From Alphaproteobacteria bacterium (lineage in GTDB: Bacteria; Pseudomonadota; Alphaproteobacteria; JAPULJ01): a DNA stretch of 64,000 nt. Under the pieces are notes generated by a model that saw nothing but the letters and a program-made list of their open reading frames with translations, searched no databases and was not told the origin of the DNA. Positions 9,605 to 52,869 of this stretch are shown here, piece after piece (position 1 is the stretch's first letter; every line of letters starts with the position of its first letter). Both the position numbers and the translations under genes were made by a program. Location: NCBI GenBank assembly GCA_037387885.1, contig JARRKQ010000003.1, positions 11,675-75,674 on the forward strand, written 5' to 3'.

Positions 9605-9997
9605 ATGGATCGGTTCACCGGCGGTTGTCTGTGCGGCAACGTCCGAATTGTGGCGACAGGACGCCCCTACCGGGTTGGCCTGTGTCACTGTCTCGACTGC
9701 CGCAAGCATCATGGCGCGCTGTTTCACGCCTCCGGGGTATTCCCTCAGGATGCGGTGACGATCGAGGGTGAAACACGCGACTACCACGGGCGGTATTTCT
9801 GCCCGCGCTGCGGCTCGCCCGTGTTCGGACGCAGCGGAGACGAAGTCGAGGTGAACTTGGGGGCCCTGGATACCCCCGACCAACTGACGCCGACCTACGA
9901 AAGCTGGATCATCCGTCGCGAGTCCTGGCTGCCGCCGTTTCCGCTCACCAGACGATACGAGCGCGACCGCGATCCCACGACGCGCTTTGAAGAGTAG
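9605..9997 (+). CDS. GFA-family protein (glutathione-dependent formaldehyde-activating / CENP-V-like zinc fold)
   Basis: Starts at ATG 9605, inside track ORF 9089..9997: MDRFTGGCLCGNVRIVATG...GLCHCLDCRKHHGALF...FCPRCGSPVF. Cys ligand pattern of the GFA family. Confidence 0.75.
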   Translation: MDRFTGGCLCGNVRIVATGRPYRVGLCHCLDCRKHHGALFHASGVFPQDAVTIEGETRDYHGRYFCPRCGSPVFGRSGDEVEVNLGALDTPDQLTPTYESWIIRRESWLPPFPLTRRYERDRDPTTRFEE

Positions 9998-39261: not shown

Positions 39262-40701
39262 ATGGGCCACGCCAAGACGAGCGCGGCGCGGAAAGGGTTC
39301 GCCGCCCTGCCCTCCGTCGACCGTGTGCTGGGCTGGCCGGCGGTGGCAGCGCTCGCCGCGACCTACGGGAATGCGGCGACGCTCGAGGCGGTGCGCGCGG
39401 CGCTCGACGAAGGACGGGCGGCGATCGCGGGCGGCACCGGCTTTGCCGGCGACGGGGCGCTGACACAAGCCGTCGCGGCTCGCCTGGAAGCGCGGTTCGC
39501 GCCGCCCTTGAGGCGCGTCTTCAACCTGACCGGCACGGTGATCCACACCAATCTCGGCCGCGCGCCCTTGGCCGATGAGGCGATTGCCGAGATCGCGGCA
39601 GCTGCGGCGCAGCCGGTGAACCTCGAATTCGATCTCGGCAGCGGTCGGCGCGGCGACCGGGACGACCTGATCGAGAACCAGATCTGCCGGCTGACCGGCG
39701 CCGAGGCCGCGACCGTGGTCAACAACAATGCGGCGGCCGTCCTGCTCGTGCTCAACACGCTGGCGCGGCGGAAGGAGGTGCTGGTCTCGCGCGGCGAGCT
39801 TGTCGAGATCGGCGGGGCGTTCCGCATTCCCGACGTGATGGCGCGGGCCGGCGCCAAACTGCACGAGGTCGGCACGACCAACCGTACGCACCGGAAGGAT
39901 TTCGAAGCCGCGATCAGCCCGCGCACGGCCTGTTTGATGAAGGTGCATACGAGTAACTACGAGGTGCGGGGCTTCACCAAAGCCGTGCCGGAGGCGGAGC
40001 TGGCCGCGCTGGCCCACGCGCACGACCTGCCCTTCGTGGTCGATCTCGGCAGCGGCATGCTCGTCAACCTCGAGGATTTCGGCCTGCCGCACGAGCGCAC
40101 GGCGCGCGAAACGCTGACCGAAGGCGCCGATCTCGTCACCTTCAGCGGCGACAAGCTGCTGGGCGGCCCGCAGGCGGGCATCATCGCCGGCCGCGCCGAT
40201 CTGGTCGCCAAGATCAAGCGCAATCCGATGAAACGGGCGCTCAGGCTCGACAAGCTCGTGATCGCGGCGCTCTCGGCGACCTTGCGGCTCTACGAGGATC
40301 CCGACGGTTTGCGCGAACGCCTGCCGGTGCTGCGGCTGCTGACGACGCCGGCTGACGAGATCGCGGCACGGGCCGAGCGGCTACAGCCAGTATTTGCGAA
40401 AGCATTGGACGGCGTCGCGAGTGTCGAAGCCGTGGCCTGCAAGAGCCAGATCGGCAGCGGCGCCCTGCCCGTCGATCTCCTGGAAAGCACCGCGCTGGCG
40501 ATCCGGCCGGCGGGCGCGCGGAAAGGTAAAGGCGGCGGAAAGGCGAATGCCTTGGCGGCGGCGTTCCGGGCGTTGCCGGTTCCGGTGATTGGGCGGGTGC
40601 GCGAGGGCGCGCTGCTCTTCGATCTGCGCTGCCTGGAAGACGAGGCCGGGTTCGTGGCGCAATTGGGCGCGCTCGACCTGTCGGGGCTCGCGCCGAAATG
40701 A
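39262..40701 (+). CDS. selA: L-seryl-tRNA(Sec) selenium transferase
   Basis: LPSVDRVL..., [40 protein letters not shown], and PLP lysine context [13 protein letters not shown]. Confidence 0.9.
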
Positions 40702-42659
40702 TCATCGCCACCGCCGGCCATGTCGACCACGGCAAGACCTCGCTCTTGAAGGCACTGACGGGGGTCGATGCCGACCGCCTGCCCGAGGAGAAGAAGCGCG
40801 GACTCACCATCGATCTGGGCTTCGTTTACGACGACACGATCGCGCCCGGCACGGTGATCGGCTTCGTCGATGTGCCGGGGCACGAGCGCTTCATCCACAA
40901 CATGCTGGCGGGCGTGACCGCGATCCGCGGTGCGATGCTGGTCGTCGCCGCCGATGACGGGCCGATGCCGCAGACGCACGAGCATTTGGATATTCTCGAT
41001 CTGGTCGGCATCGAGACCGGGTTCGTCGCGCTCACCAAGATCGACAAGGTGGATGCGGAGCGCGTCACCGAGGTGACCGCGGAGATCGAGGCGATGCTGG
41101 CGGGCACGCGTCTCGCCGGTGCACCGATCTTTCCGGTGTCGTCGGTTGACGGTAGCGGTGTCGCGGACATTGCCGCGCATCTGCGAGGCTTGGCGGAAAG
41201 CGAAAAACGGGCGCCACCGGCGGGCAATTTCCGGCTCGCGGTCGACCGCTCCTTTACCGTCGCGGGCGCGGGCCTGGTGGTGACCGGGCCGGTCAGCGCC
41301 GGGCAGGTGCGGACGGGTGACACGGTCGTCCTCTCGCCCGACGGCCGCGAGCTCCGCGTGCGCGGGTTGCGGGCGCAGGACCGGGCGGTCAAGGAAGCGG
41401 TACTCGGCGACCGCTGCGCCATCAACTTGGCCGGGCGCATCAGCAAAGAGGAGATCGCGCGCGGCGACTGGATCGTCGCAATACGTGCCCACGCGCCGGT
41501 GCGTCGGATCGATGTGGCGCTCCGTGTCCTTGGTTCGGAGGACCGCGCGCTCAAGCACTGGACGCCCGTGCATGTCCATCACGGCACGGCGGACGTGATG
41601 GGCCGGGTGGCGCTGTTGGAGGAGAAGGCCATCGAGCCGGGCGGGCAAGGCCTTGCGCAGTTGGTATTGGACGCGGCGCTCTGCGCCCGCGCGGGCGACG
41701 CCGTGATCATCCGCGATCAATCGGCGCGGCAGACCATGGGCGGCGGTCGGGTCGTCGACCCGTTCTCGCCACGGCGCGGCCGGGCGCGGCCCGAACGCCT
41801 CACCTGGCTGCACGCCCTGTGCAATCCGGATCGAGATGCGGCGCTGCAGGCTATTCTCGATGCGTCGCCCGGCGGCGCGCCGCTGCAGACGCTAGAAGCC
41901 GCCTGGAATTTGACGGCCGCAGAGGCCGAAGCGCTGCACGCCAAGGCGGATGTCTGTTGTACAGGTCAGGACGAAGTCGTTGGTCTGACGAAGGCACATC
42001 GCGACGCCCTCGCTTCGGCCATTCTCACGGCGCTTGAGCGGCTGCACCGTGCGAACCCCAATGCGGGCGGTGTGAACGAGGCGCATCTGGCGCGCGCCCT
42101 TCCGTTCCGCGCCCGGCCGGCGGCCTTCGCGCATGTCGTGGGCGAGCTCGTCGCCCAAGGTGAGATCGTGCGCGCCGGCGCCGTGCTGCAGCGACGAGGC
42201 TTCGCGGCCAGACTATCGGCGGCCGACGACCGGGACTGGCGACGTGTCGAAGCGGTGATGAACGCTGCGGCGGACCGGCCGCCGACCATCTTCGAGATCG
42301 CCGAGGACCTCGGCCTGCCGCAGAACCAGGTCGCGGGGCTGTTGGCGCGGACGGCCAAGCTGGGCCTGACCGCGCGGGTGTCGTCGAACCGCTACATGAC
42401 GCGGGCAGGATTGCGGACATTGGCGGGCATCGCCGAAACCGGCGCGCGCGGATTGCCCGGTGGGCGTTTCAGCGTCGCCGCCTTCCGCGACTGGTCGGGG
42501 ATCGGCCGCAATCTCAGCATCAAAATCCTGGAGTTCTTCGACAAGGTGAAGTTCACGCGGCGCCTCGGCAACGAGCGCGAGATCCTGCGCCCGGCTGCCG
42601 ACGTGTTCGGCGCGGGCGAGGCTGCCCCTGCCCCTCAAGAGCCCGTCAAGGCGGGCTGA
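40698..42659 (+). CDS. selB: Selenocysteine-specific translation elongation factor
   Basis: [52 protein letters not shown], and a long C-terminal winged-helix region. ATGA overlap with selA. Confidence 0.9.
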
Positions 42660-42702
42660 ATGCCTTGGACCTCGACGGGGCGGCCATGCTAGCCAGAGAG
42701 AC

Positions 42703-42798
42703 GGAGGAGGATCGGTTCCCGGTGGGCCGCGCGGGCTTCAAACCCGTTGGGACGCGCCAGGCGTGTCTGGTGGGTTCGACTCCCACCCTCTTCCGCCA
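42703..42798 (+). tRNA. selC: tRNA-Sec (anticodon UCA)
   Basis: GGAGGAGG-AT-CGGTTC..GGGCCG-C-GCGGG-CTTCAAA-CCCGT-long variable arm-TGGGTTCGACTCCCA-CCTCTTCC-G-CCA. Features: 8-bp acceptor stem, 6-bp D stem, UCA anticodon in the loop CUUCAAA, long extra arm, encoded CCA. Confidence 0.9.
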
Positions 42799-42816
42799 CT
42801 TCCCGCGACCCTAGCC

Positions 42817-45030
42817 ATGCAGAACGACACGCCGGTCAAATGCGACATCGTGCTGATCGGCGGCGGCCATGCGCATGCCGCAGTGCTGAAGAGCTTCGGC
42901 ATGAAGCCCGAGCCGGGGGTGCGGCTCAATCTGATCTCGCCGGGCTCGCTTACGCCCTATTCGGGGATGCTGCCGGGCTATCTCGCCGGGCATTACACGC
43001 TGGAAGAAACGCATTTGGACCTGCGCGCCCTGGCACGGTTCGCCGGCGCACGCTTCTACCAGACGGCGGCGACCAGCCTCGATCTCGCCGCCGGCACCGT
43101 CCTCTGCGGTGACCGGCCGCCGGTCGCCTTCGATCTGCTCAGCATCGATATCGGCTCGACGCCCAGCGAGCACGGGATCGCGGGCGCCGAACGTTCGATC
43201 CCGGTGAAGCCGGTCGACCGCTTTCTCGCCCGCTGGGACGAGGTCGAGCGGCAAATCGTGGCCGATGGCGGGCGGCACCGGCTGGTCGTCATCGGCGCGG
43301 GTGCCGGTGGAACCGAAACCGCGTTGGCGCTCGATTTCCGGGCGCGTCAGGCGCTGAAGCAGGCCGGCAAGCCCGCGAACGGGTTCGAGGTTGCGATCGT
43401 CGCGCAATCGGCAGAGCCGCTCGAAACACACGGCGCCGGAACACGGCGGCGCATGCGGAAAGCGATCGAGCACGCCGGGATTGCGTTCCACGGCGGCCAT
43501 TCGGTGAAGGCCATCGAGGATGGCCGGATCGTCTGCGAGCCCGCGATCGATTTGCCGTTCGATAGTGTCGTGCTGGTGACGCCGGGGTCGGCGGCGCCCT
43601 GGCTTGCCAGTACAGGCCTCGCGCTCGACGAGCGCGGCTTCATCCGCGTGCACGACACGCTGCAGTCGGTGACCGATACACGCGTCTTCGGCGCCGGCGA
43701 CACTATCGCCTTCGAGCCGCGCGCGCTTCCGAAGAGCGGCGTCTATGCCGTGCGCGAGGGGCCGTTCCTGGCGACGAGCCTGCGCGCGCTTGCAACCGGC
43801 GGAACCCCGCGCGCCTACCATCCTCAGCGTCGGACCTTGGCGCTGATCTCGATGGGGAAGAAGCGCGCGGTGCTGTCCTACGGGGCCGCGTCGGTCGAGG
43901 GCGACCGGGCCTGGCGCTTCAAGGACTGGATCGACCGGCGCTGGATGCGGAAGTACCAGGAGCTGCCGGAAATGGACGGCGGCCAGGACGACGGTGACGA
44001 CGAGCCGATGCGCTGCGGCGGCTGCGGCGCCAAGGTGCCGGCGGATGTATTGAAAAGCGCGCTGGCGACGATCGCACCGAACCAAAGTCCGAAGACACGA
44101 AGTGTCCTCGTAGGGCTCGAGGCGCCGGACGATGCGGCTGTGATCGTTCCGCCGCCAGGCAAGGCGCTGGTGCAGACCTTCGATCAGTTCCGCGCCTTCA
44201 TCGACGACCCCTACCTCTTCGGCCGCATCGCTGCCAATCATTGCCTGGGCGACATCCATGCGATGGGGGCCGAGCCGGCCTCGGCGCTCGCCGCGGTCAC
44301 CCTGCCCTATGCCGAGCCGGAGAAGATGGGCCAGGACCTCAAGCAGCTTCTGGCGGGTGCTCTGGCGACGTTCAAGCTGGAAGGCGTAGCGCTGATCGGC
44401 GGGCATACCGGCGAGGGCGCCGAGTTGATGATGGGCTTCACCATCAACGGCTTCGTCGATGAGGCGGCGATGCTGCGCAAGGGCGGCCTCAAGCCGGGCG
44501 ATGCGATCATTCTGACGAAGCCGCTCGGCACCGGCGCGCTGCTCGCCGCCGACATGCGCTACAAATCGGATGGGCGCTGGATCGACGCAGCGATCGAGAC
44601 GATGCTGCAATCGAACGGGCCGGCCGCCGAGATCGCCCGCAAACACGGGGCAACCGCCGCGACCGACCTCACCGGCTTCGGCCTCGCTGGGCACCTGATC
44701 GAGATGGCCGAGCCGGCGGGGGTGACCGTGACGATCCGACTGGACGATGTACCTGTGCTCAAAGGTGCGCTGGATGTGATGGCGGATGGGATCGTGAGCT
44801 CGTTGCAGCCCGACAATGAGCGCAACGCCGGGCTCGGCGCTACGGCGAACAACACCAGGCGCCCGATTCTGTTCGACCCACAAACGGCGGGCGGGTTGCT
44901 GATCGGCGTTGCCGCGGAAACGGCTGAGGCCTGCCTCGCCGATCTGCGCGAAGCAGGCTTCACCCAGGCCGCGGTAATCGGCGAGGTCAATGCCGAGAAA
45001 AGCGCCGGGCCTCTTGTCGTCGCCGCCTAG
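42817..45030 (+). CDS. selD: Fusion protein: N-terminal FAD/NAD(P)-binding pyridine-nucleotide-disulfide-oxidoreductase-like domain + C-terminal selenide, water dikinase (SelD, Cys type)
   Basis: Starts at ATG 42817 (the track ORF start 42763 overlaps the tRNA). N-terminal DIVLIGGGHAHAAVL and LVVIGAGAGGTE Rossmann motifs. From about aa 398: MRCGGCGAKV (SelD glycine-rich loop with Cys, not Sec), then DDAAV, FGRIAANHCLGDIHAMGA, and the PurM-like C-terminal half. Confidence 0.85.
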   Translation: MQNDTPVKCDIVLIGGGHAHAAVLKSFGMKPEPGVRLNLISPGSLTPYSGMLPGYLAGHYTLEETHLDLRALARFAGARFYQTAATSLDLAAGTVLCGDRPPVAFDLLSIDIGSTPSEHGIAGAERSIPVKPVDRFLARWDEVERQIVADGGRHRLVVIGAGAGGTETALALDFRARQALKQAGKPANGFEVAIVAQSAEPLETHGAGTRRRMRKAIEHAGIAFHGGHSVKAIEDGRIVCEPAIDLPFDSVVLVTPGSAAPWLASTGLALDERGFIRVHDTLQSVTDTRVFGAGDTIAFEPRALPKSGVYAVREGPFLATSLRALATGGTPRAYHPQRRTLALISMGKKRAVLSYGAASVEGDRAWRFKDWIDRRWMRKYQELPEMDGGQDDGDDEPMRCGGCGAKVPADVLKSALATIAPNQSPKTRSVLVGLEAPDDAAVIVPPPGKALVQTFDQFRAFIDDPYLFGRIAANHCLGDIHAMGAEPASALAAVTLPYAEPEKMGQDLKQLLAGALATFKLEGVALIGGHTGEGAELMMGFTINGFVDEAAMLRKGGLKPGDAIILTKPLGTGALLAADMRYKSDGRWIDAAIETMLQSNGPAAEIARKHGATAATDLTGFGLAGHLIEMAEPAGVTVTIRLDDVPVLKGALDVMADGIVSSLQPDNERNAGLGATANNTRRPILFDPQTAGGLLIGVAAETAEACLADLREAGFTQAAVIGEVNAEKSAGPLVVAA

Positions 45031-45077: not shown

Positions 45078-45716
45078 ATGCGCGACGTAGACGAATTGGT
45101 GGACGGCTACCGCCGCTTTCTGGCCGGCCGGTACGAGAAAGAGGCCGCGCTCTATAGCGAGCTCGCCGAACAGGGCCAGGCGCCGAAGGTGATGGTGATC
45201 GCCTGCTGCGACAGCCGCGCCGATCCCGCGGCGATCTTCGACGCGCGGCCGGGCCAGCTCTTCGTGGTGCGCAATGTCGCCAATCTGGTGCCGCCCTTCG
45301 AGCCCCACGGCGACTATCACGGCACCAGCGCGGCACTCGAGTTTGCGGTGAACGGGCTCGGCGTGGAGACGATCCTGGTGATGGGCCACGGCCGTTGCGG
45401 CGGCGTGCGCGCCTATCTCGACGGGCTCTATGAAGCCGAGCCACCACGCGGCTTCATCCAGCGCTGGATGTCACTTTTGAAGACGGCGCAGACCGAAGCG
45501 TTGCGCGCGGCGGGCGACCAGCCGATCGAGGCGCAGGCGAAGGCGCTCGAATTCGCCTCGGTGCGCCATTCGATCGACAACCTCCAGACCTTTCCCTTCG
45601 TGAAGGACCGGGTGGCCGACGGCCGGCTGCGCCTGCGCGGCGGCTATTTCGACATCGCCGATGGGCGCCTGCTGGCGCTCGATCCTGAAAGCGGGGCTTT
45701 CAGCTCTGTCGACTGA
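45078..45716 (+). CDS. Beta-class carbonic anhydrase
   Basis: VMVIACCDSRADP...VVRNVANLV...MGHGRCGG, the zinc ligands C-x-D-x-R and H-x-x-C. Confidence 0.85.
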   Translation: MRDVDELVDGYRRFLAGRYEKEAALYSELAEQGQAPKVMVIACCDSRADPAAIFDARPGQLFVVRNVANLVPPFEPHGDYHGTSAALEFAVNGLGVETILVMGHGRCGGVRAYLDGLYEAEPPRGFIQRWMSLLKTAQTEALRAAGDQPIEAQAKALEFASVRHSIDNLQTFPFVKDRVADGRLRLRGGYFDIADGRLLALDPESGAFSSVD

Positions 45717-45736: not shown

Positions 45737-46849
45737 TCAGGCCTTGGCCGGTTCCGGCGTCTCTCCGAACGCATTGATGCCGAGCTGGTCGCGCATGCCC
45801 TCGGTCATTTCCGCCTTGTCGTCCTCCAGCGGGATGCCGGTGGAATCGGCGACGCGGTCGATGGCGTTGAAGAGCGCAGCGACCCCCGCCGCATCCGCCA
45901 AGGCCTCGCCGCCCATGGCCTCGATCACAGCCGCGCGGGCGGCATCAAGCCTGGCCGGATCGGCGCCGACCGCCGCTTCGGCGAATTCGAGCAGGACGCC
46001 CGCGTTCGGGATGCCGCTTTCGTCACCGCTCTTTCCCAGCAGTGCGCTTAGATCGTAGTCGTCTCCGGAATGTTCGCCGCTCGCACGGAGCAGCACCGCA
46101 TGGCTGGTGGTTCAGTAGAGACACTGGTTGAGGGCGGAGACCCGGCCGGCGATCATCTCGATCTGGGCGTGGCTGATGGCGCGGTACTCGGTGCCGAAGT
46201 CGCGCATCTGATCGCCGCGCAGATAGAGCGTGTTCGCCATCTCCCAGAAGCTGCGCGCCGTCGCCGGCACCAGCGTGAGCGCGCGGCGGATATGCGCGGC
46301 GCTGCCCGGATAGAATTCGCGCTGGAGCGGGCCGTCGTGATCGGGATCGAGCGTCGGCACCCAGGCCAGCTCGATATTGAGGTGCTCGGGCGTCTCCGGG
46401 CTCGGCGCGCCGTCCTGCGCGTCCGGAATCTCCGGTGCGTCCTGGCCAATGCCGCGGCAAAAGGTGTCGATGCCGACGACGCTGACGACGACGCCGATCA
46501 GCTCGACATATTCCCTGGGCGAGATACCGCTGCTGGTGACCTCGCGGAACCAGCGTTCGGAAAGCCGGCCCGGATCGCTCATGACCCGGTGAATGATGTC
46601 GACCCAGACCTCCGGGAGCGCGCCCAGATGGTTGTGCTCACCGTCGACAGCAAAGGGCGAGATCGCGGCCTTGCGTTCTGCGCACAGGGCGCAGCCGGCG
46701 ACGTTTCGTGCTTCGGCCGCGATGGCGGTGCGCTGCTCGGCGGTCAGCCAAGTTCCCGGCTCGCCGATCCGCGCCCAGACGTTCGGCAGCGCCGCCGCAA
46801 CCTCGTCGCGAATCGGAACCGGCGCAGCCTCAAAAGATAAGGTGCTCAT
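45737..46849 (-). CDS. Candidate selenoprotein: two-domain CMD/AhpD-like protein (about 370 aa) with in-frame UGA at 46114..46112
   Basis: Track ORFs 46112..46849 and 45737..46096 are in the same frame, separated only by TGA + 5 sense codons. Joined reading: ...HAQIEMIAGRVSALNQCLY-U-TTSHAVLLRASGEHSG..., which gives the AhpD/CMD motif C-x-x-C-x-x-x-H with TGA at the second Cys. The N-terminal domain has its own CALC motif. Confidence 0.7.
46082..46102 (-). promoter_or_regulatory. Candidate bacterial SECIS hairpin for the AhpD-like gene
   Basis: RNA CAUGCGG-UGCUGCU-CCGUGCG. Pairs are C-G, A.C mismatch, U.G, G.U, C-G, G-C, G-C, with a 7-nt loop that starts 17 nt after the UGA and has G at loop position 2. 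The stem is weak and no folding was computed. Confidence 0.35.
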
Positions 46850-46899: not shown

Positions 46900-46997
46900 C
46901 GTGCCTATTCGCCCCGAACAACGGTGTCGGCGTTGCAATCCGCGCGCGACGCAGGCACAGTTGGCGTTCCTGCGAGCCATTTCACTGGAGCCGCCTT

Positions 46998-47468
46998 TTG
47001 TCAGAGAAACTTGGGATCGGCGCGACGTTTCCGAAGCTAACGCTCAAGCTGGTCGGTGGCGGAACGCTCGATCTTCCCGAAGGGCTCGACGCCAAATACC
47101 GCGTCATCCTCTTCTACCGGGGCCATTGGTGACCCTACTGCCGCCGTCAGTTGGACGGCTTCGAAGAAAATAGGGAAGCGCTCGAAGCGAAGGGCGTCAA
47201 GATCGTCGCCGCCAGCGTCGATGACGAGGAGAAGGCCGGCGAGATCGCGGCCGGCAAGGGCTTTGCCTTCGGCTACGGCGTGACCCGCGAAGATGCGGAC
47301 AAGCTGGGCTCGTGGTGGGAAGAGCGGCGCGGCATCATCCAGCCGTCGGAGTTCCTGCTCAATCCCGAGGGCAAGGTGATGGCCTCGAGCTACAGTGACG
47401 GGCCGATCGGACGCATCGACGCCGCCGACGTGCTGAAGGTGATCAACTTCTACGAGTCGAAGAAGTAG
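46998..47468 (+). CDS. Candidate selenoprotein: peroxiredoxin-like / redoxin (AhpC-TSA fold) protein with U-x-x-C motif, in-frame UGA at 47130..47132
   Basis: My translation from TTG 46998 (GGAG 8 nt upstream): MSEKLGIGATFPKLTLKLVGGGTLDLPEGLDAKYRVILFYRGHW-U-PYCRRQLDGFEENREALEAKGVKIVAASVDDEE...LLNPEGKVMASSY.... The track lists only the 3' part (47151..47468). FYRGHWCPYC is the usual family motif, and here the first Cys codon is TGA. Confidence 0.75.
47143..47159 (+). promoter_or_regulatory. Candidate bacterial SECIS hairpin for the Prx-like gene
   Basis: GCCGUC-AGUUG-GACGGC: a perfect 6-bp stem and a 5-nt loop with G at position 2. The loop starts 17 nt after the UGA. Confidence 0.5.
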
Positions 47469-47550: not shown

Positions 47551-48246
47551 ATGGCCAGCACCCCCGAACCGCCGTCACCCTTACGACTGGGGCTCGTTTC
47601 GGGGGCGACCATTGCCTGTTTCGGCGCCGTGCTTTTCCTGCCGGCGGGACGGCTCGACTGGTTCGCTGGCTGGCTCTATCTCGCGATCGTCGTTGTCTAC
47701 TTCGCCGCCAATTACGTCTATCTCAACCGCGTGAACCCCGAGCTGATCGCCCATCGCATGCGCATGGGCAAGGGCACCAAGCGCTGGGACAAGGTCTGGC
47801 TCTGGCTGAACACGCCCGTTTTCCTCGGCATCCATGTCGTCGCCGGGCTAGATGCCGAACGCTTCGGGTGGTCGCAGATGCCGGGATGGCTTTGGCCGGT
47901 GGGGCTTGCGGTGTTCGTTGCGGGGAGCGTGCTGGTCAGCTGGTCGATGGGCGTGAACCCGTTCTTCGAGAAGACCGTACGCATCCAGAGCGAGCGCGGC
48001 CATCGGGTCATCGACACCGGCCCGTACCGCTTCGTCCGCCATCCAGGCTATCTCGGGTTCTTCGGCTGGCTCGTTTCCACGCCGTTGCTGCTCGGCTCGT
48101 GGTGGGCCTTCGTGCCCGCGGCGCTCTCGCTTTTCTCTTTCATTGGGCGCACGGCGCTCGAGGACCGGACGCTGCGGCGCGAGCTGACGGGCTATGAAGA
48201 CTATGCGCGCCGCGTCCGCTACCGGATCCTGCCAGGGGTTTGGTGA
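47551..48246 (+). CDS. Membrane methyltransferase of the isoprenylcysteine carboxyl methyltransferase / PEMT-like family
   Basis: About 5 TM. C-terminal motif ...HRVIDTGPYRFVRHPGYLGFFGWLV...ALEDRTLRRELTGYEDYARRVRYRILPGVW is typical of ICMT/DUF1295-type enzymes. Confidence 0.7.
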   Translation: MASTPEPPSPLRLGLVSGATIACFGAVLFLPAGRLDWFAGWLYLAIVVVYFAANYVYLNRVNPELIAHRMRMGKGTKRWDKVWLWLNTPVFLGIHVVAGLDAERFGWSQMPGWLWPVGLAVFVAGSVLVSWSMGVNPFFEKTVRIQSERGHRVIDTGPYRFVRHPGYLGFFGWLVSTPLLLGSWWAFVPAALSLFSFIGRTALEDRTLRRELTGYEDYARRVRYRILPGVW

Positions 48247-48262
48247 CGCAGGCGGTCGCGCC

Positions 48263-49246
48263 CTAGTCGAAGGCCGTCTGGTGGCGGCTCAGGATCTGCT
48301 CGCCGAACAGGCTGGCGACGAGCTCGACGACGAGCTCCGCCGTGGTGTTGCGCAGATCGAGCGCGGGGTTGAGCTCGGTGATCTCCATCGAGCCGAGCAG
48401 ACCGGTCTCGTAGAGCATCTCCATGCAGAGCTGCGATTCGCGGTAGGTCGGCCCGCCCTTGACCGTCGTGCCGACGCCGGGCGCGATCGTGGGATCGAGG
48501 AAGTCGACGTCGAAGCTCAGATGCAGATGGCCACCACGCTCGGTCACCCGCGCGACGATATCCTCCATGACGCGGCGCATTCGCCGCTCGTCGATCTCGC
48601 GCATGTCGTAGACGGTGAGGCCGGCCTCCAGCACCGCTGCTTTCTCGACATGGTCGACGGAACGGACGCCGAGCAGGCTGATCTCGTCGGCGCCGAGGAT
48701 CGGCTGGCGGCTGCCGAGCGCGGTGAGCTCCGCCGGGCCGTCGCCGCAAAGGACCGCGACCGGCATGCCGTGAATATTGCCCGAAGGCGAGGTCTTGGGC
48801 GTATTGAAATCGGCATGCGCATCGAGCCAGACGACGCTGAGCGGCGTATCGCTTGCGGCGCAATGCTCGGCGACGGCGGCGATGGATCCGATCGCGATCG
48901 AGTGGTCGCCGCCCATCACCAGGGGCAAACGGCCCGCTTGCAGCGATGTGGCGACCACCGCTTTCAGATTGGCGCACCATTCGGCGGCTTCGGCAAGATG
49001 GCGGTAGCCGTCGCGGACCGGCGCATCGGGATTGGGCGGGCCGGAGACATTGCCGCCGTCGATGACGCTCAGGCCCATCTTGCGCAGCATCAGGTCGAGG
49101 CCGGCGACGCGCAGCGCCTCCGGACCCATCGAGCTGCCCCGGTCGGCTGCGCCGATATCGGTCGGCGCGCCGATCAGCTCGATGGTGGGCTTGGCGGACT
49201 TGCCGGACCGGGCGGGCTTGGACGATTTGGCGGACTTGGCGCTCAT
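48263..49246 (-). CDS. rocF: Arginase with a K/S-rich repeat N-terminal extension
   Basis: Ureohydrolase motifs GGDHS, DAHADFN, SFDVDFLDP. The N-terminus is MSAKSAKSSKPARSGKSAKP before the conserved IELIGAPTDIGA. Confidence 0.9.
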   Translation of the reverse strand: MSAKSAKSSKPARSGKSAKPTIELIGAPTDIGAADRGSSMGPEALRVAGLDLMLRKMGLSVIDGGNVSGPPNPDAPVRDGYRHLAEAAEWCANLKAVVATSLQAGRLPLVMGGDHSIAIGSIAAVAEHCAASDTPLSVVWLDAHADFNTPKTSPSGNIHGMPVAVLCGDGPAELTALGSRQPILGADEISLLGVRSVDHVEKAAVLEAGLTVYDMREIDERRMRRVMEDIVARVTERGGHLHLSFDVDFLDPTIAPGVGTTVKGGPTYRESQLCMEMLYETGLLGSMEITELNPALDLRNTTAELVVELVASLFGEQILSRHQTAFD

Positions 49247-49354
49247 GGCAACACGATACCCGCGCGACGCCTAATGGACGCCTAACGGACAGCCCGGCCC
49301 CGCCGCGGCTGACTGCCTAAGAAATGCCTGGGGAAATGCCTGCCTGGGATTGGG

Positions 49355-50254
49355 TCAGCCCGCCTTGGCGGCCTTCGCCTTGTCGAGAATGCCGACGGCG
49401 ACCATGGTTTCCTCGACCCGGCGCTTGGTCTCCTCGGCGATCTCGCAGATCGGCAGGCGCGCCTCGGCGCTGCAGAGGCCGAGCAGGCTTGCGGCATACT
49501 TCACCGGGCCGGGGCTGGTCTCGCAGAACAGCGCCTCGTGGAGCGGCAGCAGGAGATCGTTGATTTCCGTGGCCCGGTCGAGATCGCGCGCGGCCCAGGC
49601 ATCGTGCATTTCCGCGCACAGCGCCGGCGCGACGTTCGACGTCACCGAGATACACCCCACCCCGCCTTGCGACAGGAACGGGATGGCGGTCGCGTCCTCG
49701 CCCGAAAGCTGGATGAAGTCGGGGCCGGTGACGACGCGTTGCTGCAACGGACGCACGAGATCGGCGGTGGCATCCTTCACGCCGACCACATTGGGCAGCG
49801 CCGCCAGGCGGTCCATGGTCTCGACTGTGATGTTCACGATCGAGCGGCCGGGGATGTTGTAGATCAGCATCGGCAACTCGGCCGCGTCGTTGATCGCCTT
49901 GAAGTGCTGGTAGAGGCCTTCCTGGGTCGGCTTGTTGTAATAGGGCGCGACCGAGAGATGGTAGTCCGCCCCCGCCTTCTTGGCGTGCTGGGCGAAGCCG
50001 ATCGCCTCGTCGGTGCAGTTGGAGCCGGTGCCGGCGATGACCGGAACGCGGCCGGCGGCCGTCTCGACACAGACCTCGACCACCCGGCGGTGCTCGGTAT
50101 GCGAGAGCGTCGGCGATTCGCCGGTGGTGCCCACGGGCACGAGCCCGTCGGTGCCGCTTTCGATCTGCCATTCGATCAAGCGGCGGAACGCGCTTTCGTC
50201 GATCTTGCCGTCGCGGAACGGCGTGATCAGGGCGGTGATCGAGCCCTTCAGCAT
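49355..50254 (-). CDS. dapA: 4-hydroxy-tetrahydrodipicolinate synthase
   Basis: MLKGSITALITPF....IDE.AF..LIEWQI..G..GLVPVGTTGES.TLS..EH..V......A.GRVPVIAGTGSN...EAI...., with active-site context GVKDA. Confidence 0.95.
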   Translation of the reverse strand: MLKGSITALITPFRDGKIDESAFRRLIEWQIESGTDGLVPVGTTGESPTLSHTEHRRVVEVCVETAAGRVPVIAGTGSNCTDEAIGFAQHAKKAGADYHLSVAPYYNKPTQEGLYQHFKAINDAAELPMLIYNIPGRSIVNITVETMDRLAALPNVVGVKDATADLVRPLQQRVVTGPDFIQLSGEDATAIPFLSQGGVGCISVTSNVAPALCAEMHDAWAARDLDRATEINDLLLPLHEALFCETSPGPVKYAASLLGLCSAEARLPICEIAEETKRRVEETMVAVGILDKAKAAKAG

Positions 50255-50420
50255 GGCCTCGTCCTCTTTGTAAGTCGTTGTTCGGTCCGGATTCGCTTGG
50301 GCCGGAGCATAACCCCGGCCTGTTTTTGCGGCAAGGGTGCACCCGTATTAACCAATTCCGCCCTTTGCCGGCTGACATCGCGGCGAAAATTTGGCATAAA
50401 TTTAGACAAATTGTGGCAAA

Positions 50421-50456
50421 GATTCGAACGATTCGAACGATTCGAACGATCCGACC
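50421..50456. repeat. 9-bp tandem repeat GATTCGAAC x3 plus a degenerate fourth unit (GATCCGACC) in the dapA/slt divergent spacer
   Basis: Read directly. Each perfect unit contains a GANTC site (GATTC) and a TTCGAA palindrome. Confidence 0.85.
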
Positions 50457-50490
50457 GACGCTCGGACGCGGAGAACTGGGAGGTTCTGGG

Positions 50491-52869
50491 GTGTTTCGAG
50501 GTCTGATAGTGGGTTTGCTCGCGCTGGCGTTGGGCGCGTCGACCAGTTTGGCCGATAGCGGAAAGCCGCGGGTCAAGGCCGCGCCTACGATGAAACCGGC
50601 GGTTAGGCCCGCTGCAGCGGCGAAGAAAAAGCCCGCCGCCCGCACGGTCGCCCGGCGGAAACACCTTATACGCCGGAAATCTGCCGCCAGCGCACGGGCG
50701 CGGGCCCGGGCCGCCGCGAGCGCGCGGGCGAAAGCGAAAGCCGCAGCCGAGCGCGAGCGTCTGGAAGCAGCCGAACGGCGGCGGGTGCGCCTCGAACGGC
50801 TCCAGCCGGCACGGGGCTCGATCGTCCAGCTTGCCATCCGCGACCCGCTGCCGCCGCTCCGCGCCAATGCGAGCGCCGCCGAGCGCGCCTTCCGCGCCAT
50901 GGAAAAGGCAAGCTGGGGTCAGGCGATTGCCGCCTACCGCCGGGTCCGCGATCCCCTGACGCGCAAGATGCTGACCTGGTATCGCCTGCAAAGCCGCACC
51001 AGCGGCGCCTCGTTCGGCGAGATCCACACCTTCCTGCAGCGGAACCCGGATTGGCCGCTCGGCGCGCGCCTGCGCTACCGCGCCGAAATGGCGATGGGCT
51101 GGAGCCATGCGCGCGACGCCGATGTGCTGGCCTTTTTCAAAGACAAGGCGCCGCGCACCTTGAACGGCGCGATGCGGCTCGCCGAGGCGCTGCGCAACAG
51201 CGGCAGGCCGACCGAGGCGACAACGTTGTTGAAGCGGACCTGGGCGCGCGGGCGCACCTTCGGGCCGCAGGAGCGCGCCTTCCTGAAGCGTTTCGGCGAC
51301 GACCTCACCGTCGAGGATCATGCCGCGCGCGTCCACACCATGATCTACCGGAACCGTCGCCGCACCGCGCGCGTCTATATCCGCGCCCATCGCGACAAAT
51401 TCACCGACGGCATGAAGGCGCTGTTCCGCGCGCGTCTGTTGCTGAGCGGCCGGCGCGCGCCGAGCGAGCGCCGGGTGGAGAAGGCGCTGGCGGCGATCCC
51501 CGAGGCCGAGCGCAAGCACCCAGCGCTCGCCCACGATCTCATCCGCTGGCATCGGCGCAAGGACCGGCTGGAGGAGGCCGTCGCGCTCCTGAACGCCACC
51601 GATGCAAGCGGCGAGCCGGAGCGGCCGTGGTGGCAGCAACGCGCCTGGGTGGCGCGGGTGGCGCTCCGCTTCGGCAAGCCGGAGATCGCCTATGCGGTCG
51701 CGCGCGATCATCACGCCAAGGAACGCCGGCACATCTACGAGGGCGAGTGGCTCGCCGGCTGGATCGCGCTCCGCTATCTGCGCAAACCGGCGCTCGCCAA
51801 ACCGCATTTCGAGAGGCTCTACAAGCTCGCGCGCTATCCGGTGAGCTGGGCGCGCGGCGCCTATTGGCTCGGCCGCACCGCCGAGGCGCGCGGCGACCGC
51901 AAGGCGGCGCTCGCCTGGTACCAAAAGGCGGCGCAGTACGTGCAGACCTATTACGGGCAGTTCGCGCTCGCCAAGCTCGGCCGCAAGCACGTGACCTTAC
52001 CGGCGCGGACGGCGATCACGCCTGCCCAGCGCGCCGCCTTCGAGCGCAAGGAGCTGGTCCGCGCGGCACGGCGGCTCGAAGCGCTCAATCAGCGCGACAT
52101 CGCCCGCTGGTTCGTCTTCGCTGCCTTCGACACGGCGAAGACCCCGGCCGAGCGCGCGCTCGCCTCGCAGCTCGGGATCGAGATCGAGCGGCTCGAGACG
52201 GCCGTGCGCACGGCTAAATATGCAGGGCGCTACAAGCAGTTGCTGGTCGAGAGCGGCTATCCGATCATCATGGTGCCGGCGGAGATCGGCGCGGAACCGG
52301 CCCTCATCCTCTCGCTCATCCGCCAGGAAAGCGAGTTCAACCACGAGGCCATCAGCTGGGCCGGCGCGCGCGGCCTCATGCAGCTCATGCCGCGGACGGC
52401 TTACAGGACGGCCCGCAACATCAAGGTGCGCTACAACCGCAAGGCGCTCATCCGCAACCCCCACTACAACATGAAGATCGGCACCTCGCACGTGGTTGAG
52501 CTGATGGAGGAGCTGGGCGGAAATTACGTATTGGTCGCCGGCGCCTACAATGCCGGGATCGGGGCGGTGAATTTTTGGCTCTCCGTGAACGGCGATCCGC
52601 GCGGCGGCAGCGCCGAGCGCTGGATCGACTGGATCGAGGCGATCCCGGTTCCCGAGACACGCAACTACGTTCAGCGCGTGCTGGAAGCGGTGCAGGTCTA
52701 CCGCGCCCGGTTGGGCGATAACACGCTGTCGGTCGCCAACATCGCCAAACGCTGGAACGGCACGGTCGAGCCCATCGACGTGACGCGCGCCGCGAGCGTG
52801 GGCAGCGCCGGCAACGGGAAAGGCTGCGTCACCCAGACTTCGGCGAAGCCGGGCAGCCCCGCCTGCTGA
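50491..52869 (+). CDS. slt: Soluble lytic murein transglycosylase (Slt70-like)
   Basis: Start proposed at GTG 50491 (GGGAGG upstream; VFRGLIVGLLALALGASTSLA signal peptide). Catalytic region LIRQESEFNHEAISWAGARGLMQLMP...AGAYNAG. The N-terminal region is A/R/K-rich low complexity. Confidence 0.85.
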   Translation: MFRGLIVGLLALALGASTSLADSGKPRVKAAPTMKPAVRPAAAAKKKPAARTVARRKHLIRRKSAASARARARAAASARAKAKAAAERERLEAAERRRVRLERLQPARGSIVQLAIRDPLPPLRANASAAERAFRAMEKASWGQAIAAYRRVRDPLTRKMLTWYRLQSRTSGASFGEIHTFLQRNPDWPLGARLRYRAEMAMGWSHARDADVLAFFKDKAPRTLNGAMRLAEALRNSGRPTEATTLLKRTWARGRTFGPQERAFLKRFGDDLTVEDHAARVHTMIYRNRRRTARVYIRAHRDKFTDGMKALFRARLLLSGRRAPSERRVEKALAAIPEAERKHPALAHDLIRWHRRKDRLEEAVALLNATDASGEPERPWWQQRAWVARVALRFGKPEIAYAVARDHHAKERRHIYEGEWLAGWIALRYLRKPALAKPHFERLYKLARYPVSWARGAYWLGRTAEARGDRKAALAWYQKAAQYVQTYYGQFALAKLGRKHVTLPARTAITPAQRAAFERKELVRAARRLEALNQRDIARWFVFAAFDTAKTPAERALASQLGIEIERLETAVRTAKYAGRYKQLLVESGYPIIMVPAEIGAEPALILSLIRQESEFNHEAISWAGARGLMQLMPRTAYRTARNIKVRYNRKALIRNPHYNMKIGTSHVVELMEELGGNYVLVAGAYNAGIGAVNFWLSVNGDPRGGSAERWIDWIEAIPVPETRNYVQRVLEAVQVYRARLGDNTLSVANIAKRWNGTVEPIDVTRAASVGSAGNGKGCVTQTSAKPGSPAC

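Follow-up and report, generated by a model that had tools for sequence, protein, structure and literature searches.

Selenoproteins that combine a peroxiredoxin (Prx)-like domain with a UxxC redox motif (U, selenocysteine, Sec) were described in the Sargasso Sea study as a 'Prx-like protein' family with UXXC, represented by 22 sequences (Zhang, Fomenko & Gladyshev 2005; PMC1088965). The UxxC of this family was set apart there from the TxxU of Sec-containing Prx, and the supplement of that study holds the sequences VLFYRGHWuPYCRRQLVAFEE... and MTIALFYRGHWuPYCRRLLAGYEE...GSWWEERR... (PMC1088965). In the Global Ocean Sampling (GOS) study, 225 selenoproteins were assigned to 'Prx-like 1, pfam00578, UxxC', about 40 sequences with the motif HWUPYC being included in the supplement, and both an adjacency to an AhpD-like selenoprotein and Ndh-SelD fusions with CxxC were reported (Zhang & Gladyshev 2008; PMC2398784). 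The name used in later reviews is 'Prx-like thiol:disulfide oxidoreductase' (PMC1794560, PMC13188914). The gene analysed here is located at positions 46998-47468 (plus strand) of a 64,000-nucleotide stretch of alphaproteobacterial DNA (contig JARRKQ010000003.1, positions 11,675 to 75,674), the whole of which is referred to below as the window. It is an unannotated member of the already described Prx-like 1 family and is not novel.

The window gene shares with Prx-like 1 the PF00578 domain, a UxxC motif with Sec in the first position, a putative Sec insertion sequence (SECIS) directly downstream, and the existence of Cys homologs, as well as the signature FYRGHW-U-P-[YF]-C-RRQL ... GSWWE[ED]RR ... 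INFYES. The window protein and the GOS read JCVI_READ_1091142149754, labelled '#Prx-like 1', share 63% identity over 127 amino acids (aa), with E = 2e-63. There is no essential difference from the described family; the window copy comes from an alphaproteobacterial genome rich in guanine plus cytosine (GC) and lies inside a selA-selB-selC-selD cluster. We consider it very probable that this gene encodes a Prx-like 1 selenoprotein in which a SECIS directs the insertion of Sec at an in-frame UGA and in which Sec45 and Cys48 carry out redox chemistry.

The coding sequence comprises 156 codons, including that of Sec45, from a TTG start to a TAG stop (47466-47468), as supported by translation, Pfam and orthologs. 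A Shine-Dalgarno-like GGAG (46987-46990, plus strand) can be read in the sequence 7 nt before the TTG (46998-47000). The only interruption of the frame between 46998 and 47468 is a TGA (47130-47132, plus strand), the codon of Sec45, with which the redox motif U-P-Y-C begins. The segment W-TGA-P-Y-C spans positions 47127-47141, and its last codon (TGC, 47139-47141, plus strand) encodes Cys48, the partner (resolving) Cys of UxxC, which is invariant and was also placed by alignments to PRDX5 and BCP. A mechanical list of the open reading frames (ORFs) of the window contains only a 105-aa ORF starting at TTG 47151 (47151-47468). All of these features, that is, the TTG start, the GGAG, the in-frame TGA and the listing of the 105-aa ORF alone, had been pointed out in the original prediction and are present in the sequence. 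The read-through translation runs as MSEKLGIGATFPKLTLKLVGGGTLDLPEGLDAKYRVILFYRGHW up to the stop and as PYCRRQLDGFEEN after it, including the stretch ILFYRGHW*PYCRRQLDGF (asterisk, stop).

When the read-through product with Cys substituted for the stop was used as a Pfam query, AhpC-TSA (PF00578) was matched on residues 7-128 (E = 2.6e-19; 69.8 bits versus a cut-off of 26), and Redoxin was also matched. It follows from the extent of the AhpC-TSA match that the domain includes the 44 residues preceding the TGA as an integral part, and the redoxin similarity that the prediction had required of them is present. Together with the presence of TGA in all the orthologs and of Cys homologs (see below), this match bears out the proposal of a redoxin gene with Sec in the first position of U-x-x-C. 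The gene is real, and public databases mis-call it as the 105-aa ORF. Since its N-terminus, MSEKLGIGATFPKL, has no hydrophobic segment as judged by eye from the sequence, the Prx-like protein would be cytoplasmic.

A tblastn scan of one genome per species (GTDB) rendered 303 relatives. The ortholog counts given here refer to the best 80 (62-97% identity), for each of which about 20 kb of DNA was examined, and the sets of 81 sequences consist of these 80 plus the window. Nearly all of them are metagenome-assembled genomes (MAGs) labelled Alpha- or Betaproteobacteria/Burkholderiales, the closest relative being a MAG annotated as 'uncultured Alphaproteobacteria' with 97% protein identity. The tblastn matches extend from query residue 1 to about residue 156 in 80/80 loci, and the Sec column is occupied by TGA in all 80 orthologs (81/81 with the window), while Cys is found there in distant homologs. 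A start codon is located exactly 44 codons before the TGA in every ortholog (ATG in 77, TTG in two and GTG in one), so that the possibility, set out beforehand, that the orthologs start at or after 47151 does not hold. No further stop was found in the 44 codons upstream of the TGA among the 80 orthologs. Moreover, the 80 loci differ from each other at many synonymous sites, and they are therefore not copies of one contaminant sequence.

In the source genome TGA is an ordinary stop codon. Seven genes neighbouring the Prx-like gene end in TGA, namely selA, selB and those encoding the carbonic anhydrase, the ICMT-like protein, the DHDPS, the SLT protein and the AhpD-related protein, and the GC content of the window is 66.5%. 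It could be argued that the interrupting TGA is a former TGC or TGT Cys codon in a gene that is dead or mis-assembled, as gene callers report only the downstream 105-aa ORF and Cys homologs with the same motif exist. We attribute a negligible probability to this explanation, given that the TGA is kept across 62-97% identity with no other stops and with the start preserved, that constraint at the protein level runs across the TGA, and that the Sec machinery is adjacent. The conservation of the TGA, the conserved starts and the use of TGA as a normal stop therefore rule out that the gene is a pseudogene, that the TGA is a sequencing error or that a variant genetic code is in use. From these sequence comparisons, the reading of TGA 47130-47132 as selenocysteine is strongly supported, and Sec would accordingly occupy residue 45 of the protein.

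Protein databases give a different picture of the family. A search of 5.8 billion proteins rendered 1310 relatives, a large share of which are proteins of 105-108 aa that align on the C-terminal 67% of the query with 63-99% identity. Hundreds of database entries thus represent the same truncated ORF, as gene callers would stop at the conserved TGA. The full-length matches show C, W or R at the Sec column. Cys is present in seven named entries (P0001, P0002, P0012, P0037, P0050, P0058 and P0062), and TGC or TGT was confirmed in the DNA of four of these; the homolog search that had been proposed for detecting Cys at the U column was therefore positive. Trp is shown in P0003, P0005, P0016, P0018, P0023 and P0030. 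A real Trp variant at this column was considered and rejected: in P0016, the one case checked in DNA, the codon is TGA (L082:420-422), and the 'W' of this entry evidently results from translation of TGA under a code that assigns it to Trp. The truncated and the 'W' entries together are a systematic annotation artefact for the Prx-like family. With the Prx-like protein as query, every NCBIfam model scored below its cut-off, the best ones being ResA (29 bits of 170) and a SelL-related model (28 of 120), and the absence of a model above its cut-off may explain the widespread truncated gene calls.

These entries bear on the question of whether UGA is decoded in some way other than as Sec, which could be as Trp under genetic code 4, by near-cognate read-through, or by termination at the UGA and a new start at TTG 47151, which would yield two peptides. 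The W found at the Sec column in some entries would fit the first of these options, and the in-frame TTG 47151, 21 nt downstream of the TGA, would fit the last one. On the other hand, the W of the entry checked is due to the use of a wrong code, and the 66.5% GC genome stops selA, selB and five other neighbours with TGA. The 105-aa product would be devoid of the strands and the redox motif of the active site. Codon 52, to which TTG 47151 corresponds, encodes a conserved Leu in the hairpin loop described below and is TTG or TTA, and TTA cannot start translation. Finally, the genes for tRNA-Sec, SelA, SelB and SelD are linked to the Prx-like gene. We therefore consider any decoding other than Sec to be very improbable.

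A hairpin is found directly downstream of the UGA, at 47143-47159 (plus strand), with a 5' arm GCCGUC (47143-47148), a loop AGUUG (47149-47153) and a 3' arm GACGGC (47154-47159). It starts 11 nt past the UGA and its apical loop starts 16 nt past it. Folded alone, the 17 nt form a perfect 6-bp stem with a 5-nt loop and have a minimum free energy (MFE) of -9.4 kcal/mol. The model for bacterial SECIS (bSECIS) elements comprises an apical loop of 3-9 nt, an upper stem of 4-16 bp, a G in the first two loop positions that is usually followed by G or U, a distance from UGA to loop of 16-37 nt, and an MFE of -7.5 kcal/mol or lower (PMC13188914, Fig. 2). The hairpin conforms to the model in every respect, with its loop of 5 nt and sequence A-G-U-U-G, stem of 6 bp, MFE of -9.4 kcal/mol and spacing of 16 nt, the last of these being the lower bound. 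Searches of Rfam detected no curated SECIS family near the Prx-like gene, even at E values up to 10; this result is uninformative, as bacterial SECIS elements share little sequence (PMC13188914).

In common with the bSECIS elements of the E. coli fdhF/fdnG type, the hairpin is an intra-coding stem-loop located after the UGA, with a small loop that has G then U at positions 2-3, a spacing of 16 nt and agreement with the consensus. It differs from them in that the stem is minimal (6 bp) and the orthologs do not conserve any extended lower helix, in that the spacing is at the lower limit, and in that its sequence bears no relation to that of the E. coli elements, as is common among bSECIS. An extended lower stem (CCCUACU/...UAGGG) that appears in the MFE fold of the window was discarded, because it is not kept in the relatives and is absent from the alignment-based consensus. 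In some relatives RNAfold favours another hairpin, CUGCC-GCC-GGCAG. This alternative was discarded as well: it shows no covariation beyond that of shuffled alignments and is broken in 27/74 distinct sequences and in the window.

The conservation of the hairpin was analysed in an ungapped alignment of 81 orthologous segments of 60 nt. The six pairs are formed in 97.5% of the cells, a share that falls to 5-55% if the 3' partner is shifted by 1-3 columns, and changes on both sides are observed in three of the six pairs. None of 500 column shuffles matched the observed pairing or covariation score, and RNAalifold, unprompted, recovered the same helix. The single stem position that varies freely covaries with its partner. 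Rare changes are compensated even where this alters amino acids, CGC to AGG by GGC to GCC in L075, and CGN to CAT by GAC to GAT in L049, L055 and L066. In the loop, A, G, U and U are invariant in 81/81 sequences, the last base being G or A. The covariance analysis that had been put forward as a check on the hairpin therefore supports it.

Codon usage points in the same direction. When only well-conserved codons are considered, those at 49-54 have a normalised codon entropy of 0.18 and the remaining 75 one of 0.71 (Mann-Whitney p = 1.7e-5). Arg49 is CGC in 80/81 sequences, Gln51 is CAG in 81/81, Leu52 is TTG or TTA in 81/81 and Gly54 is GGC in 76/80, whereas the invariant Leu38 is mostly CTG and codons 46-48, right after the UGA, vary freely. 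A contig of 39% GC keeps the GC-rich hairpin even though the preceding Arg is encoded there by AGA. This comparative evidence is strong that the hairpin is under selection at the RNA level. Its agreement with the bSECIS model, the covariation and the synonymous constraint bear out the proposal that GCCGUC-AGUUG-GACGGC, 11 nt after the UGA, acts as a SECIS. SelB would bind it, as is suggested indirectly by the covariation, by the synonymous constraint and by the presence of selB 4.5 kb upstream.

It might be the case that the hairpin is a mere by-product of the conserved C-R-R-Q-L-x-G in GC-rich genomes and that some other element directs Sec insertion. The hairpin does lie wholly within conserved coding sequence, it has no matching Rfam SECIS family, and two Cys-form genes (L081 and L083) keep the stem. 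Yet the amino acids concerned allow many other codon choices, and a by-product would account neither for the near-frozen synonymous sites of codons 49, 51 and 52, flanked as they are by conserved codons that vary freely, nor for the covariation of the free stem position and the compensation of rare changes. The persistence of the hairpin in the contig of 39% GC, its loss in distant Cys forms and the lack of covariation in the alternative hairpin also speak for a function of its own. The by-product explanation is thus, in our opinion, highly improbable, and a SECIS role is preferred.

The four Cys-form loci examined illustrate how the hairpin may decay. In L081, which is 80% identical to its nearest Sec form, the stem is kept and the loop is changed to AGCUA. 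In L083 (4001-4477, TGT, in a contig of 43% GC; 74% identity) both hairpin and loop are intact, GCCGAC-AGTTG-GTCGGC. The stem is broken in L085 (59-64% identity), and L084 (50% identity) has no hairpin. In this small set, Cys forms near the Sec forms thus keep the hairpin and distant ones lose it, which fits a relic, and the hairpin of L083 is probably a relic SECIS that has outlasted the replacement of Sec by Cys.

The complete toolkit for Sec synthesis and insertion is encoded in one run (39262-45030), 2-8 kb upstream of the Prx-like gene and on the same strand. It comprises selA, encoding L-seryl-tRNA(Sec) selenium transferase (39262-40701; TIGR00474, 576.7 bits versus 267.9); selB, encoding the Sec-specific elongation factor (40698-42659; TIGR00475, 417.3 bits versus 242.25); selC, the tRNA-Sec gene with anticodon UCA (42703-42798), identified with ARAGORN and matched by Rfam RF01852 with 72.3 bits versus a gathering threshold of 47; and a gene encoding a fusion of a pyridine-nucleotide-disulfide oxidoreductase to SelD (42817-45030; TIGR03169, 413.6 bits versus 310; TIGR00476, 290.5 bits versus 125). 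The fusion protein contains the Pfam domains Pyr_redox_2, AIRS and AIRS_C and is of the Cys type, with CGGC (MRCGGCGAK) in place of Sec. The genes are tightly packed: selA and selB share an ATGA overlap, tRNA-Sec follows selB after 44 nt, and the ATG of the fusion (42817) lies 19 nt after the tRNA.

A similar arrangement is frequent among the relatives. tRNA-Sec is found within 10 kb in 35/80 Sec-form loci versus 0/4 Cys-form loci, and it often lies on the strand of the Prx-like gene and ends 40-240 nt before it, as in L010, L033, L057, L059, L069, L073 and L080 (at about 9660-9962). Within the same distance, selA is found in 30/80 and selB in 32/80 Sec-form loci. A single tRNA-Sec gene per genome is the norm, and its closeness in 35/80 loci therefore implies a very strong linkage between selC and the Prx-like gene. 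In the stretches of about 20 kb examined, the linkage points away from the last of the conditions set beforehand, namely orthologs devoid of sel genes that keep the TGA.

Some observations weigh against the proposal of a SECIS-directed Prx-like 1 selenoprotein. The 61 nt that follow the UGA in the window fold no better than shuffled sequences (z = -1.0), so that little can be concluded from this one sequence. In the alignment, 15/81 sequences have U-U or U-C in place of a base pair at columns 27 and 35, the second pair counted from the loop. The hairpin and loop retained in L083, a gene with TGT, show that genes without the TGA can carry the hairpin as well, and 45/80 loci show no Sec gene within the 10 kb examined. 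In addition, the Thr and Arg alignments to PRDX5 and E. coli BCP discussed below provide a lead only. Finally, a 2026 review grades the family only as 'predicted with high confidence' as a selenoprotein (PMC13188914).

Regarding the active site, the best matches of the window protein among solved structures are thiol-disulfide oxidoreductases of the ResA type (3c71_A, E = 2.4e-7). The W-C-x-x-C of ResA aligns on W-U-P-Y-C, and its cis-Pro on Pro116, the invariant Pro of Q-P-S-E-F. In the alignment to the PRDX5 and BCP sequences, Sec45 aligns with the Thr of the Prx motif PxxxTxxC and Cys48 with the peroxidatic Cys. The canonical motif is absent by this comparison, the corresponding residues R-G-H-W-U-P-Y-C having Arg in place of Pro and Sec in place of Thr, with the Cys alone being kept. 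The catalytic Arg of BCP, in a profile alignment, falls on the invariant Pro116, so that the conserved Arg is likewise absent. The Cys homolog P0001, with 67% identity to the window protein, served as the basis of an AlphaFold model. This model has a predicted local distance difference test value (pLDDT) of 92.2 and a predicted template modelling score (pTM) of 0.89, and in it the motif is placed at the N-terminus of a helix. A Foldseek search with this model identified the Prx fold, with a template modelling (TM) score of 0.82 for Bcp4 and a range of 0.75-0.83 for Bcp4, Prx1, Prx6 and AhpC. The overall fold is therefore peroxiredoxin-like and the active site is of the thioredoxin/ResA type.

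The original prediction had placed the TGA at the peroxidatic Cys. This label is incorrect, as Sec aligns with the Thr of Prx and with the N-terminal Cys of the ResA CxxC, and it is Cys48 that occupies the peroxidatic position. A related alternative, a true peroxiredoxin that follows the standard Prx mechanism with Sec as its peroxidatic residue, appears rather unlikely to us. The Pfam AhpC-TSA threshold is passed, the best structural matches are peroxiredoxins with TM scores of about 0.8, and selenols react fast with peroxides. The position of Sec at the Thr of PxxxTxxC, the replacement of the motif Pro by Arg and of the catalytic Arg by an invariant Pro nevertheless speak against such a mechanism, as do the best sequence matches among solved structures, which are CxxC oxidoreductases of the ResA type. 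The NCBIfam models for Prx, BCP, AhpC and PrxU also remained far below their cut-offs, and the distinction of UxxC from TxxU had already been drawn in 2005 (PMC1088965). A peroxidase activity by a non-Prx route is possible.

The comparison with each of the described groups can be summarized as follows. Canonical Prx (BCP/PrxQ, Prx5, AhpC) share the fold and the Pfam family with the window protein, which lacks their catalytic Pro, Thr and Arg and has Sec at the Thr position, as judged from the alignments to PRDX5 and BCP. The Sec-containing Prx (TxxU, PrxU) carry their Sec at the peroxidatic position, three residues later than Sec45, and the PrxU model NF040737 scored 16.5 bits versus a cut-off of 270. 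The SelL-related redox protein model (NF040769) scored 27.8 bits versus 120. With proteins of the ResA/TlpA/StoA type (B. subtilis ResA, 3c71, 1st9), the window protein shares the alignment of W-C-x-x-C and cis-Pro and probably also the chemistry, based on an N-terminal nucleophile and a resolving Cys. ResA-type proteins are, unlike it, membrane-anchored and extracytoplasmic and act in cytochrome c maturation or sporulation, whereas the window protein has no hydrophobic N-terminus and would use Sec. Its score with the ResA model NF002854 is 29.3 bits versus a cut-off of 170, and its fold is closer to that of peroxiredoxins.

The following mechanism can be proposed. SelA and SelD, encoded upstream, would be the enzymes that charge the tRNA with selenium. 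SelB with GTP and Sec-tRNA(Sec) would then bind the mRNA hairpin 47143-47159 through the conserved AGUUG loop, and the 16-nt spacing would put the SelB complex at the ribosome while the UGA (47130-47132) is in the A site, so that selenocysteine would be inserted at the UGA instead of termination taking place. In the protein, the thioredoxin/ResA-type W-U-P-Y-C at a helix N-terminus and the Pro opposite to it suggest that Sec45 is the attacking nucleophile. It would attack and reduce an oxidised substrate, which might be a disulfide, a sulfenate or a hydroperoxide. A Sec45-Cys48 selenenylsulfide would then be formed, and a partner would re-reduce the protein. The biochemical role, as regards both the redox substrate and the partnership, is thus putative. 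By analogy with AhpC/AhpD, the re-reducing partner could be an AhpD-related CxxU selenoprotein.

A gene for such a protein is located next to the Prx-like gene, in divergent orientation (45737-46849, minus strand), with the motif C-L-Y-U-T and a Sec UGA at 46114-46112. The minus-strand ORF 46849-46112 is matched by NF041238 (AhpD_rel_CFYUT) with 298.7 bits versus 175, only on profile positions 1-238 of 357, and in the read-through translation the frame runs on through the TGA to 45737. This gene has a SECIS-like hairpin of its own (46076-46094, minus strand), GCUGCUC-CGUGC-GAGCGGC, found by folding, with 7 bp, a loop containing GU and a distance of 24 nt from UGA to loop. An AhpD-related homolog adjoins the Prx-like gene in 17/80 loci, mostly directly upstream and on the same strand. 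The TGA is kept in 17/17 of these adjacent orthologs, and the hairpin is conserved and covaries, as for example in CAUGCUC/GAGCAUG. This AhpD-related selenoprotein family is already known.

The adjacent AhpD-related CxxU selenoprotein is the likely functional partner of the Prx-like protein. A broader idea is that the two proteins, UxxC and CxxU, form, in analogy to AhpC/AhpD, a dedicated two-selenoprotein relay tied to a selA-selB-selC-selD 'selenium cassette' of aerobic Alpha- and Betaproteobacteria, perhaps moving together, and that this pair, and not formate dehydrogenase, is the reason why the Sec machinery has been kept. What bears on this idea is the strong linkage, with tRNA-Sec no more than 10 kb away in 35/80 loci and an AhpD-related gene next to the Prx-like gene in 17/80, and we regard it as speculative and on the whole unlikely.

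The results presented here add little to the biology of the family, since the family itself, its UxxC, its SECIS and its pairing with an AhpD-like protein were published in 2005-2008 and reviewed again in 2026. Their practical value lies in the correction of annotation, as hundreds of entries in public collections are fragments of 105-108 aa or carry a false Trp, and automatic pipelines keep missing the gene because no NCBIfam model reaches its cut-off. Such a model could be started from the set of 81 sequences, which has an invariant AGUU loop, a 6-bp stem that covaries and a spacing of 16 nt. Moreover, the locus, linked to sel genes and to a second selenoprotein, represents a compact system in which Sec insertion and the function of the family could be tested.

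Some additional observations concern the surroundings of the gene. A further candidate CxxU gene, with C-Y-Y-TGA-T-V-S-H, was noticed in L003 (L003:2295, plus strand), about 8 kb upstream of the Prx-like gene and distinct from the adjacent AhpD-related gene of that locus. A mechanical scan of the window for TGA-interrupted frames gave 156 candidates in this GC-rich DNA and was too noisy to be used. Between the SelD fusion and the AhpD-related gene there is a beta-carbonic-anhydrase-like gene (45078-45716, plus strand). Its position is the same in L001 and L002, and L005 and L009 have a homolog no more than 10 kb away. The window lacks the type III polyketide synthase gene that accompanies the Cys form in L081. 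The ORFs 48194-49285 (plus strand), 49317-50900 (minus strand) and 50248-51990 (minus strand) have no family hits and were set aside as probably spurious in DNA of high GC content. On the strands opposite to them, the genuine genes are an arginase-family gene (48263-49246, minus strand), a DHDPS-family gene (49355-50254, minus strand) and a gene for an SLT-domain transglycosylase (50278-52869, plus strand). Just downstream of the Prx-like gene, at 47551-48246 (plus strand), there is a gene for a membrane methyltransferase of the ICMT/PEMT family, and the same is found in L001 and L002; an ICMT/PEMT-family gene is also located near the Cys-form homolog in L081 (11247-11756, minus strand). This proximity may be a coincidence or may reflect a weak functional link.

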